NCBI GenBank assembly: GCA_963832105.1
Contig: CAWHSS010000003.1
Span: forward strand, 472,131-536,130
Direction: 5' to 3'
DNA length: 64,000 nt
From: an uncultured Chloroflexia bacterium
Lineage (GTDB): Bacteria > Chloroflexota > Limnocylindria > Limnocylindrales > CSP1-4
The notes under the pieces were generated by a model. The model worked only from the letters and a program-made list of their open reading frames with translations, was not told the DNA's origin and made no database searches. Below are positions 12,020 to 13,598 of this stretch, in pieces. Every line of letters begins with the position of its first letter. Position 1 is the stretch's first letter. A program made the translations under genes and the position numbers.

Positions 12020-13598
12020 CTAAAAGTCCGTCGGGACGCCGCCCTCGGATTTGCGGCGGGCTACGAACGCGGCTAGCTCCTCCGCGACCGCTGGGTCGAT
12101 CGGCGGCGGCTCGTAGGCGTTGAGCAGCTCTTTCCAGATCGAGTTGGCTTTTGCGGGGGCCTGCGGCGAGCCCGCCTCCTCCCAGGTTTCGAAGTTCCGC
12201 CAATCGCTGATCATCGGCTTGTGGAACGCGGTCCGGTAGCGCTCCTGGGTGTGCTGCGCCCCGAAGAAGTGCCCGCCCGGCCCGACCTCCCGCATCGCGT
12301 CGAGCGCGAGCGTGTCGTCGTCGACTACGACCGGATCGAGGAACGCGGCGACCATCTGGAGCAGCTCGGCGTCGAGGATCATCTTTTCGTAGCCCGCGTG
12401 GAGGCCGCCCTCCATCCAGCCGGCGCCGTGCATCAGCAGGTTCACCCCGCCCATGATCGCGCCCCACAGCGAGAAGACTGACTCGTACGCCGCCTGGGCG
12501 TCGACGGCGTTCGCGGCGGAGACGTTGGACGACCGATAGGGCACGTTGTAGCGACGGGCGAGCTGGCCACCGACCATCGCGGTCCGCATGTATTCGGGCG
12601 TCCCGAACGCCGGCGCGCCCGACTGCATGTCGACATTCGAGGTGAAGCCGCCGTAGACGACCGGCGCACCCGGCCGGACGACCTGGGTGAGGACCATCCC
12701 GGCCAGCGCCTCGGCGTTCTGCTCGGCGAGGGCACCTGCGAGTGTCACCGGGGCCATCGCCCCGGCCAGCGTGAACGGGGTCATGACGATGACCTGGTTG
12801 CGGGCCGACATCTCGAGGATGCCGTGGAGCATCGGCGTGTCGAGCCGGAGCGGGGACGACGAGTTGATGACGGTGAACAGCGACGGCTCGTCGGTCGAGC
12901 GTCTCGCCATCGATCCCGCGGGCGATCCGCGCCATCTCGATCGCGTCCGTGATCCGTTGCCGCCCCAGCGAATAGGCGTGGATCGGCTTGTCGGCCAGCG
13001 TGAACAGGTCGAAGAGAGCATCGAGGTGGCGGACCGAGGCATGCAGGTCGATCGGCTCGACGGGGTAGCCGGCGAAGAAGTGGACGCAGTTGAGCATCTG
13101 GCCGAGCCGGATGAGGTTCTGGTAGTCGGCGTGGTTGCCGACTCGCCGCCCGTTGTCCAGGTCCGACACGTTGGGCGCGCTCGCCACCGACCCGAACGCC
13201 ACCCAGTCCCCACCGATCTCGAGGTCGTGTTCGGGGTTCCGGGCGTGGAGCGTGAACGACGCCGGCGCGGTCTTGATCCGCTCCTCGACCATCGCCCGGT
13301 CGAAGCGGACCCGTTCCGTCCCCGGCTCGACGCGCGCTCCGGCAGCCACGAGCAGATCCCGGGCCTCCTCGTCGAGGAAGTCCATGCCGATCTCCTCGAG
13401 GACCTGGAGCGATGCGTCGTGGATCGACTCGAGCTCGTCGGCCGAGACCACCTCGGTCGGCTTGTAGCGCATCCGCGGCTGGGCCCAGGGTCGTTGCTGG
13501 GGCAGGCGGCTCCGCTCGCCGGTTGCGCGGCCGCCGCTGCGCCGACGTCGCTCGCCGGCGGGTGCCACGGCGTCGGCGTCCGGGACGGTCGGCGGCAT
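12020..13598 (-). pseudogene. MttB-superfamily (non-pyrrolysine) quaternary-amine methyltransferase, one frameshift near 12895
   Basis: The N-terminal part is in ORF 12000..13856 (MPPTVP...RMRYKPTEVVSADELESIHDASLQVLEEIGMDF...GIDGETLD). The C-terminal part is in ORF 12020..13213 (DEPSLFTVINSSSPLRLDTPML...). No in-frame TAG. Confidence 0.8.

Follow-up and report, generated by a model that had tools for sequence, protein, structure and literature searches.

The 64 kb stretch of DNA analysed in this study (hereafter, the window) carries a gene for a methyltransferase of the MttB superfamily that lacks pyrrolysine. This gene probably encodes a functional enzyme of an aerobic soil Chloroflexota bacterium, acting in a betaine route with a corrinoid partner encoded outside the window. 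Most likely, the MttB product removes the first methyl group of glycine betaine. The original prediction considered the aerobic setting anomalous, because it regarded non-pyrrolysine MttB proteins as enzymes of anaerobes. That premise is out of date, as aerobic bacteria use an MttB-family MtgB together with distally encoded MtgC, MtgD and RamA (PMC12478193). The finding is therefore correct but ordinary, since a remote gene for the B12 carrier matches the system published in 2025 (PMC12478193), and its interpretation has largely been answered already.

The mttB gene is located on the minus strand (12020..13631) and consists of approximately 536 codons after the removal of one extra base. Coding frames in the window were predicted using a GC3-based Viterbi frame model, stitched and then scanned with Pfam. 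The stitched protein matched PF06253 (MTTB) over the entire profile (1–500 of 500) in one stretch, with an E-value of 5.7e-201 and a score of 668 bits against a gathering cut-off of 25. This match, which ran unbroken across the repaired frameshift, was far above chance and placed the protein within the MttB superfamily as first proposed. Sequence matches to solved structures were decisive for the predicted fold of the product. The gene ends at a TAG stop codon (12022–12020, minus strand). Its likelier start is a GTG at 13631: this codon shares bases with the TGA that ends the upstream gene (GTGA), and a start there agrees with how the closest homologues begin (VTD...); the ATG at 13598, earlier taken as the start, is in the same frame. 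The product shared 93% identity with a metagenome protein (P0001), and more than 8000 relatives were found in public metagenomes at E ≤ 1e-20, with the best 120 sharing 80%–93% identity.

No internal stop and no in-frame TAG were present in mttB other than the terminal codon, in agreement with the original prediction. Pyrrolysine in MttB, written X in PDB 7xcl, aligned with a valine in the motif SSNVSAAN, and hence no UAG occupied the active-site position. Moreover, the product scored 324.9 bits against the pyrrolysine-MttB equivalog model TIGR02369, below the cut-off of 525. A pyrrolysine enzyme is ruled out by this score together with the valine at the pyrrolysine position.

The reading frame of mttB is shifted by a single extra base at 12890 (minus strand), a +1 frameshift that falls at codon 248 of approximately 536. 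A single frameshift had been correctly recognised before, but it had been placed near 12895. The junction between GETLDR and EPSLF aligned without a gap to ten homologues, and compared with the closest genome (L006), which has an intact mttB, the window carries 1 nt more at this position. That mttB is a pseudogene inactivated by this frameshift in a decaying operon is very improbable, although the frameshift does stand in the given sequence and the majority of the remaining operon genes are likewise broken in frame. However, the breaks are nearly all single-base insertions without in-frame stops, and they occur in every gene of the 20.8 kb compared with L006 (22 isolated +1 insertions versus 4 deletions), with similar frame switches across the rest of the window. 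Comparable fragmentation of genes was also observed in related long-read MAG contigs. In addition, GC3 was approximately 0.9 or higher on both sides of 12890, and dN/dS relative to L006 was 0.135 on the 5′ side of the frameshift and 0.043 on its 3′ side, indicating strong purifying selection on the downstream codons. Because the extra base is one of 22 insertions and the downstream dN/dS is as low as 0.04, mttB is not a dead gene, and a pseudogene is rejected on the insertion pattern and dN/dS. Either the frameshift is an error in the sequence or it arose very recently; we regard it as a sequence-quality artefact, the extra base being one among numerous such bases in a sequence of low accuracy.

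The mttB gene forms part of an operon-like run of approximately 10.5 kb on the same strand, comprising genes for an enolase-family protein, MttB, a dimethylglycine dehydrogenase (DMGDH)-like protein, SoxA/G/B/D-like subunits and an iron-containing alcohol dehydrogenase (Fe-ADH). The head of the operon is an enolase-superfamily (MR/MLE) gene (13628..14761, minus; PF13378 MR_MLE_C, E = 4.9e-45) with three frame breaks, whose stop overlaps the mttB start and whose position is kept in Chloroflexota relatives. Downstream of mttB, a DMGDH-like flavoprotein (9496..11978, minus) with the Pfam domains DAO, FAO_M, GCV_T and GCV_T_C is encoded with several frame breaks; intact orthologues of 817–822 aa lie directly 3′ of mttB in four related loci (L001–L004). 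Across 80 loci from four phyla, most mttB orthologues had a DMGDH homologue at a distance of no more than 10 kb.

The next four genes of the run are best regarded as Sox-like. They encode a SoxA-like subunit (7260..9468, minus; Fer2_4 N-terminus and GCV_T, one frame break), a small ORF identified as the gamma subunit by position only (6883..7255, minus), a SoxB-like FAD subunit (5672..6880, minus; PF01266) and a SoxD-like subunit (5421..5669, minus; PF04267 SoxD, E = 1e-18). The best NCBIfam match of the SoxA-like subunit was TIGR01372 soxA at 277 bits (cut-off 1164), while the SoxB- and SoxD-like subunits reached 398 bits against TIGR01373 soxB (cut-off 529) and 62.5 bits against TIGR01374 (cut-off 116.5), respectively. 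The gamma-position ORF had no match in Pfam or NCBIfam, and an ORF of 128–129 aa without a Pfam match occupies the same position in relatives. Since the Sox-like subunits fell below the NCBIfam cut-offs and the gamma ORF had no match, the four subunits did not all reach curated scores, and the term heterotetrameric sarcosine oxidase is a family-level call. The DMGDH-like protein likewise scored under the curated equivalog cut-offs. Thus, the gene neighbours described in the original prediction, a flavin dehydrogenase and a sarcosine oxidase directly downstream of mttB, were confirmed, but the identity of the latter holds at the family level only.

The run ends with the Fe-ADH gene (4264..5418, minus; PF00465 and PF25137). 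A choline dehydrogenase model (NF053866) was its second-best NCBIfam match (226 bits, well under the cut-off), and the Fe-ADH is possibly a choline dehydrogenase of the GbsB type. A divergently oriented betaine-type ABC transporter (14869..18703, plus; PF00005, PF00571, PF00528 in two stretches and PF04069 OpuAC) consists of an ATPase with a CBS domain, two permease domains and an OpuAC substrate-binding protein; these parts are kept in relatives, and the transporter weakly matched the model of the glycine-betaine-binding protein OsmF. A histidine-ammonia-lyase-like gene and an IclR-family regulator lie beside the transporter (18804..20930, plus; PF00221, PF09339 and PF01614), and this pair recurs in two related loci (L001 and L005). 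The order kept in Chloroflexota loci is the OpuA transporter followed by MR_MLE-(Aldedh)-MttB-DMGDH-SoxAGBD-FeADH. Genes associated with an aerobic lifestyle were observed elsewhere in the window, including those for a Cu/Zn SOD, PaaABCD, a fatty-acid desaturase and a luciferase-like monooxygenase.

The claim that the window encodes no corrinoid-binding protein was upheld by three kinds of search. PF02310, PF02607 and PF00809 had no match in the predicted coding frames of the 64 kb window, tblastn with MtgC, DUF1638, MtgD, RamA and MetF gave no match in the window, and a six-frame HMM/phmmer search for a corrinoid partner yielded nothing better than E = 0.17. The last result also led us to reject the idea that the low-GC3 stretch at 24014–25583 conceals a corrinoid gene. 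An Rfam search of the window detected no cobalamin riboswitch. Similarly, no corrinoid, DUF1638, pterin-binding, RamA or MetF genes were found within ±10 kb of mttB in 27 Chloroflexota loci, nor corrinoid, MtgD or RamA genes within ±10 kb in 17 alphaproteobacterial loci. A corrinoid protein (PF02310/PF02607) encoded alongside the methyltransferase, as in a three-component system, was therefore absent from the window and from the 27 Chloroflexota loci, and this absence of corrinoid-machinery genes counts against the glycine betaine route proposed here.

Linkage to such genes was found in other relatives. In seven Acidimicrobiia MAG loci (L031, L038, L039, L045, L049, L055 and L065), orthologues with 70%–76% identity have one or more of the genes for MtgC, DUF1638, MtgD, RamA and MetF at a distance of up to 10 kb. 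One of these loci (L045) contains the full set of MtgC, DUF1638, MtgD, RamA and MetF as well as a second MttB (MttB2), and relatives of its MtgC carry PF02607 and PF02310. When an Acidimicrobiia MtgC was used as a query, the best 120 matches listed were only Acidimicrobiia/Actinomycetota relatives with at least 85% identity. In Shinella sp. PSBB067, a single replicon carries both the mttB orthologue and the best-matching MtgC homologue, with 0.5 Mb between them. Apart from this distance, the annotated plasmid contexts (Mesorhizobium pWSM1497 and Shinella) offered nothing informative on function, and the literature search found nothing specific on MttB combined with DMGDH and sarcosine oxidase.

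The original prediction left two options, a partner encoded at a distance and a non-canonical methyl acceptor, and these results bear on both. The second option can be framed more broadly: the DMGDH-linked MttB clade of Limnocylindrales-type Chloroflexota might need no corrinoid protein of its own to demethylate betaine, drawing instead on cobalamin that is free or bound in some other way, on the B12 domain of MetH or on a non-canonical acceptor. The lack of corrinoid, MtgD and RamA genes in the 64 kb window and within ±10 kb in the 27 Chloroflexota and 17 alphaproteobacterial loci is consistent with this possibility, as is an aromatic substrate cage unlike that of MtgB. If true, corrinoid-protein-free demethylation would represent a new mechanistic variant of the superfamily working in air. 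However, it is established chemistry of the family that a supernucleophile, such as Co(I), is required to demethylate quaternary amines. A change of cofactor is also unlikely at 70%–76% identity, the level at which the Acidimicrobiia orthologues cluster with corrinoid-machinery genes, and the 0.5 Mb separation in Shinella shows that such dispersal is normal. Furthermore, aerobic proteobacteria with dispersed genes need MtgC and MtgD (PMC12478193). Demethylation without a dedicated corrinoid protein is thus a slender prospect. The distant partner is favoured by the Acidimicrobiia linkage, the Shinella arrangement and the published aerobic system (PMC12478193), whereas a non-canonical acceptor has no positive evidence.

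The substrate was considered from the operon and from the predicted binding pocket. An unlikely but more credible alternative is that the same corrinoid mechanism, with a distal partner, acts on another carboxylated quaternary amine, such as proline betaine, hydroxyproline betaine, carnitine or gamma-butyrobetaine, with the adjoining flavoenzymes processing the demethylated products of that substrate. The operon is headed by a gene of the enolase superfamily, among whose members are epimerases of proline betaines; it is also common for OpuAC-type binding proteins to take several betaines. The scores of the DMGDH- and Sox-like proteins under the equivalog cut-offs are also compatible with another betaine. 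Nevertheless, the enolase-family protein lacks a close match to a characterised member, and a test for a known (hydroxy)proline betaine epimerase returned only distant NCBIfam and PDB matches, giving no assignment. The three consecutive N-demethylation systems correspond to the three methyl groups of glycine betaine, which is one too many for proline betaine. The MttB–DMGDH adjacency is nearly universal across phyla, and the Fe-ADH and aldehyde dehydrogenase of relatives suit the conversion of choline to betaine.

The pocket residues gave a mixed picture. The mttB product aligned over its full length with the Desulfitobacterium hafniense glycine betaine methyltransferase MtgB (DSY3156; PDB 2QNE/9YCE) at 36% identity (E = 1e-114), and the PDB entries 9yce/2qne were matched at E = 3e-100. 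In MtgB, R312 and H348 bind the carboxylate, and the aromatic pair Y97 and F356 cages the betaine nitrogen (PMC13080624). When aligned to 9yce with phmmer, the window protein retains R312 and H348 (VPYR... and LLMHGAG), whereas it has alanine for Y97 (GSVASAPN) and glycine for F356 (GWMEGGL), so that the cation-pi pair is missing and the published minimum glycine betaine motif is only half present. Alanine occupies the Y97 position in nine of ten close homologues aligned, with glycine in the tenth (P0115). The same pattern, Ala/Gly in place of Y97/F356 with R312/H348 kept, is found in MtcB, MtpB, MthB and MtyB (PMC13080624), which favours another betaine. A clade formed by MttB2 of L045 and PDB 4YYC is closer to MtgB and retains the tyrosine equivalent to Y97, unlike the window protein with its alanine, and MttB2 lies inside an MtgC-DUF1638-MtgD-RamA cluster rather than beside DMGDH. 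Aerobic MttB proteins thus appear to fall into two clades, one adjoining DMGDH and the other inside the corrinoid cluster. The latter could be the true glycine betaine enzyme, a point that also counts against our main interpretation.

Taking glycine betaine as the most probable substrate, the following route can be proposed. The OpuA-type ABC transporter would import a quaternary amine with a carboxylate group, glycine betaine being the most probable candidate; relatives with aldehyde dehydrogenase and Fe-ADH genes may also produce the substrate from choline. The substrate would be bound in the TIM-barrel pocket of the MttB protein, and one N-methyl group would be moved to Co(I) in a small, separate corrinoid protein of the MtgC type. 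A pterin-binding methyltransferase of the MtgD type would pass the methyl group on to tetrahydrofolate, with oxidised cobalamin re-reduced by a RamA/DUF1638 system. The resulting dimethylglycine would be demethylated to sarcosine by the adjacent DMGDH-like flavoprotein, and the neighbouring Sox-like oxidase would then demethylate sarcosine to glycine. Genes for the corrinoid protein, MtgD and RamA are predicted to lie beyond the 64 kb window in the host genome, as in Ruegeria pomeroyi and Shinella. If this interpretation is right, the cobalamin-dependent aerobic glycine betaine route described in 2025 from marine Proteobacteria would extend to abundant Chloroflexota and Acidimicrobiia of soil and freshwater, and osmolyte turnover in soils would require B12. 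An apparently anaerobic enzyme in an aerobic operon without its partner is the normal arrangement and not an anomaly.

Among known systems, pyrrolysine-dependent MttB of Methanosarcina (PDB 7XCL) belongs to the same Pfam family and the same TIM-barrel methyltransferase fold family, but it matched the window protein at only 161 bits and is much further off than MtgB. MtgB, also without pyrrolysine, differs from the window protein in that the latter has approximately 45 extra N-terminal residues with an Arg-rich stretch (RRRRSGGR), belongs to an aerobic host, has no adjacent MtgC/MtgA and is encoded in an operon with flavin-dependent demethylases. The best PDB match was 4YYC, a putative trimethylamine methyltransferase of Sinorhizobium meliloti (40% identity, E = 1e-112), which is likewise a non-pyrrolysine protein of an aerobic lineage and has the Arg-rich N-terminal extension in common with the window protein. 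However, 4YYC and MttB2 of L045 are 40%–44% identical to the window protein and 61% identical to each other, which places them in a separate clade. A close parallel is the MtgBCD(E)/split methionine synthase system of Ruegeria pomeroyi DSS-3, which also involves PF06253 proteins in an aerobe (PMC12478193). Genetic evidence in this bacterium shows glycine betaine demethylation via the corrinoid protein MtgC and the pterin-binding MtgD, the mutated genes being mtgC and mtgD and not mtgB (Mausz et al., PNAS 2025, PMC12478193). The genes for MtgC, MtgD and RamA/DUF1638 are encoded apart from those of the two PF06253 proteins induced on betaine, and the predicted destination of the methyl group is the tetrahydrofolate C1 pool (PMC12478193). 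In other taxa of the same study, dimethylglycine and sarcosine demethylation genes lie near the system, as they do beside the PF06253 gene at the window locus. The window locus, known from 64 kb only, differs in its host, a Limnocylindrales-like soil Chloroflexota from a group absent from that study (PMC12478193).

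The coding sequence of the MttB-superfamily methyltransferase was located at 12020-13631 on the minus strand. The G+C content of the window was ca. 70%, and coding frames were assigned by third-position GC (GC3), which marks them clearly. The gene begins with a GTG at 13631, which shares bases with the upstream gene's TGA stop (GTGA), and ends with a TAG at 12022-12020. The original prediction had placed the start at an ATG at 13598; this codon is in the same frame, but the GTG is likelier because the closest homologues share the N-terminus VTD... With one base removed, the frame-repaired protein matched Pfam PF06253 (MTTB) in one stretch over positions 1-500/500 (E = 5.7e-201), and the repaired frame contained no internal stop codons. 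The sole in-frame TAG (amber) is the natural stop of the gene itself (12020-12022, minus strand) and is without consequence here. Valine stands where the Methanosarcina enzyme has pyrrolysine (X in PDB 7xcl), and the Pyl-MttB equivalog score was 325 bits, below the curated cut-off of 525. Together with the full-length domain, these features confirmed a non-pyrrolysine MttB homologue.

The predicted coding frames were stitched and scanned against Pfam and NCBIfam. The gene is the second in a minus-strand run from 14761 to 4264, in which intergenic gaps are at most ca. 50 nt or genes overlap. The run is headed by an enolase-superfamily (MR/MLE) gene (13628-14761, minus strand), which is also found at this position in Chloroflexota and in several further lineages; superfamily members of known function or structure matched it only distantly. 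The next gene after mttB on the same strand, as predicted, encodes a flavoprotein with DAO, FAO_M, GCV_T and GCV_T_C domains, the architecture of dimethylglycine dehydrogenase (DMGDH). It is followed by genes for a SoxA-like protein, a small ORF in the gamma position, a SoxB-like protein, SoxD and, last in the run, an iron-containing alcohol dehydrogenase (Fe-ADH). The predicted sarcosine oxidase was thus only partly borne out: soxA, soxB and soxD were the best matches, but the gamma-position ORF matched no family and the alpha, beta and delta subunits are named "Sox-like" only, since all scores fell under the NCBIfam curated cut-offs. These subunits (5421-9468, minus strand) are divergent, and the SoxA-like protein, short at ca. 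736 aa, has an N-terminus of the 2Fe-2S (Fer2_4) type. Divergent from the operon are a betaine-type ABC transporter (CBS-domain ATPase, two permease domains and OpuAC binding protein), a histidine-ammonia-lyase-like gene and an IclR regulator. Aerobic functions elsewhere in the window included a Cu/Zn superoxide dismutase, PaaABCD, an acyl-ACP-type desaturase and a luciferase-like monooxygenase. The single Rfam match at the gathering threshold was ASdes (41973-42040, minus strand; 57 bits versus 40), described by Rfam as a TB sRNA. In mycobacteria, ASdes is an antisense RNA to a desaturase gene. The match in the window lies inside an FA_desaturase_2 gene and therefore probably reflects conservation of the coding sequence, not a gene for an RNA.

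Relatives of the window protein numbered in the thousands. The best 120 were 80%-93% identical and came mostly from soil metagenomes; where named, they belonged to Chloroflexota or "Candidatus Limnocylindrales". The same operon was found in the contexts of four of these relatives and in 80 genome loci. Most Chloroflexota relatives carry a gene for a ca. 503-aa aldehyde dehydrogenase between the enolase-family gene and mttB (e.g., 8497-10008 in locus L001 and 8479-9993 in locus L002), and together with the Fe-ADH it would fit conversion of choline to betaine. This gene is absent from the window (13628-13634), where the flanking genes overlap by 4 nt, and from the closest genome, L006. In most loci, spanning Chloroflexota, Actinomycetota, Alphaproteobacteria and Gammaproteobacteria, a DMGDH homologue is encoded no more than 10 kb from the mttB orthologue; this is the strongest contextual argument for dimethylglycine as the MttB product. 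Three intact window proteins (2841-3797, plus; 30912-32138, minus; 59499-61139, plus) are exact entries in a public protein collection, each encoded on one contig of 1,385,240 bp, so the window stems from an assembly already deposited; the cluster of the thiolase among them holds a "Candidatus Limnocylindrales bacterium" member.

The reading frame of mttB switches once, with the GC3 signal changing frame in the interval from about 12880 to 12950. Joining the open frames gives ...GIDGETLDR followed by EPSLFTVINSS..., a junction that aligned without gaps to ten homologues. The closest public sequence, L006 (CAVZKO010000006.1, a contig from the MAG of an uncultured Chloroflexia bacterium), is collinear with window positions 2767-23611 at 88.7% nucleotide identity, and its genes, including mttB, are mostly intact. 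Compared with L006 over these 20.8 kb, isolated single-base insertions number 22 in the window, including one at 12890, versus four isolated single-base deletions; none of either kind is in a homopolymer. Nearly every operon gene is affected, with single-base breaks in the enolase-family gene (three), the DMGDH-like gene (several), SoxA, Fe-ADH and the transporter ATPase. Frame switches also occur across the whole window (1-64000), far beyond the betaine operon; a GlnA-like gene (61114-62592) is spread over four frames. Related long-read MAG contigs showed gene fragmentation of a similar kind. These breaks appear to reflect limited accuracy of the assembly rather than decaying genes. The alternative that a real frameshift has made mttB a pseudogene is extremely unlikely: dN/dS against L006 was 0.135 upstream and 0.043 downstream of the break, and GC3 was ca. 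0.9 or higher on both sides, a pattern not expected of a long-dead gene. The extra base at 12890 is either an error in the sequence or a change that arose very recently.

The predicted lack of a corrinoid partner in the window held in every search. Its coding frames contained no B12-binding (PF02310/PF02607), pterin-binding or MtrH-type domains; tblastn against a reference MtgC/DUF1638/MtgD/RamA/MetF set gave no match; a six-frame HMM/phmmer search for corrinoid machinery gave nothing better than E = 0.17; no cobalamin riboswitch was found; and the low-GC3 stretch at 24014-25583 held no relevant ORF. Within that stretch, 24034-25523 (minus strand) lacks the usual high-GC3 coding signal and carries two minus-strand ORFs, one lipoprotein-like (326 aa) and one with a TolB-like beta-propeller segment (138 aa); it may be foreign DNA. 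The 80 loci were screened for corrinoid machinery by motif screen and tblastn. It occurred within 10 kb of the orthologue in seven Acidimicrobiia loci (L031, L038, L039, L045, L049, L055 and L065), whose orthologues are 70%-76% identical to the window protein, and an eighth, unclassified locus (L074) had an MtgC fragment at the contig edge. By the same screen and distance, none was found in 27 Chloroflexota or 17 alphaproteobacterial loci. The clearest case is L045, where one strand encodes a corrinoid protein of 240 aa, DUF1638, a pterin-binding methyltransferase, a RamA-like activator, a second MttB and a MetF paralogue, together with the orthologue and, after it, DMGDH. Relatives of its corrinoid protein carry PF02607 and PF02310, and it is 75%-80% identical to alphaproteobacterial homologues. 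In Shinella sp. PSBB067, a 4.6-Mb replicon carries the best orthologue (63.6%) at 2.269 Mb and, at 1.768 Mb, the best homologue of MtgC; the region within ±15 kb of the orthologue contains no corrinoid gene.

The window protein is probably a working betaine:corrinoid methyltransferase, most plausibly for glycine betaine, with its partners encoded elsewhere in the genome. Dimethylglycine would be passed to the adjacent flavoenzymes. The partners expected at a distance are a corrinoid protein, a methyl-corrinoid:THF methyltransferase and an activator. A partner-less or non-canonical mechanism, which the empty window might suggest, is very unlikely. The observation of an MttB in an aerobic operon with no corrinoid partner in the window was accurate, and the puzzle it raised is already answered in print. 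In the aerobe Ruegeria pomeroyi, two PF06253 proteins are induced by growth on glycine betaine (Mausz et al., PNAS 2025, PMC12478193). This growth needs the corrinoid protein MtgC and the pterin-binding MtgD, which are encoded away from the PF06253 genes and are also used by a split methionine synthase; a reactivation role was proposed for RamA and DUF1638, and in other bacteria the genes for the later demethylation steps are found nearby (PMC12478193). Chloroflexota are not mentioned in that study.

The glycine betaine site of Desulfitobacterium hafniense MtgB comprises a cage around the nitrogen, formed by Y97 and F356, and two carboxylate-binding residues, R312 and H348 (Picking et al., JBC 2026, PMC13080624). 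The window protein conserves the Arg and His, whereas Y97 is replaced by Ala and F356 by Gly, a pattern common to superfamily members for other betaines. The substrate is therefore inferred from context, not from the motif. Another betaine handled by the same mechanism would agree with these replacements but seems rather unlikely given the DMGDH near the orthologue in most loci across phyla; glycine betaine remains the likelier substrate. Aerobic lineages contain two distinct non-Pyl MttB clades (L045 6070-7626 versus L045 9989-11530 and window 12020-13631), either of which may act on glycine betaine. The window-type clade adjoins DMGDH and is without the Tyr97 of MtgB. The other is encoded within the MtgC-DUF1638-MtgD-RamA cluster and groups the second L045 paralogue with Sinorhizobium meliloti 4YYC (61% identical to each other, 40%-44% to the window protein); unlike the window protein, it retains the MtgB tyrosine.
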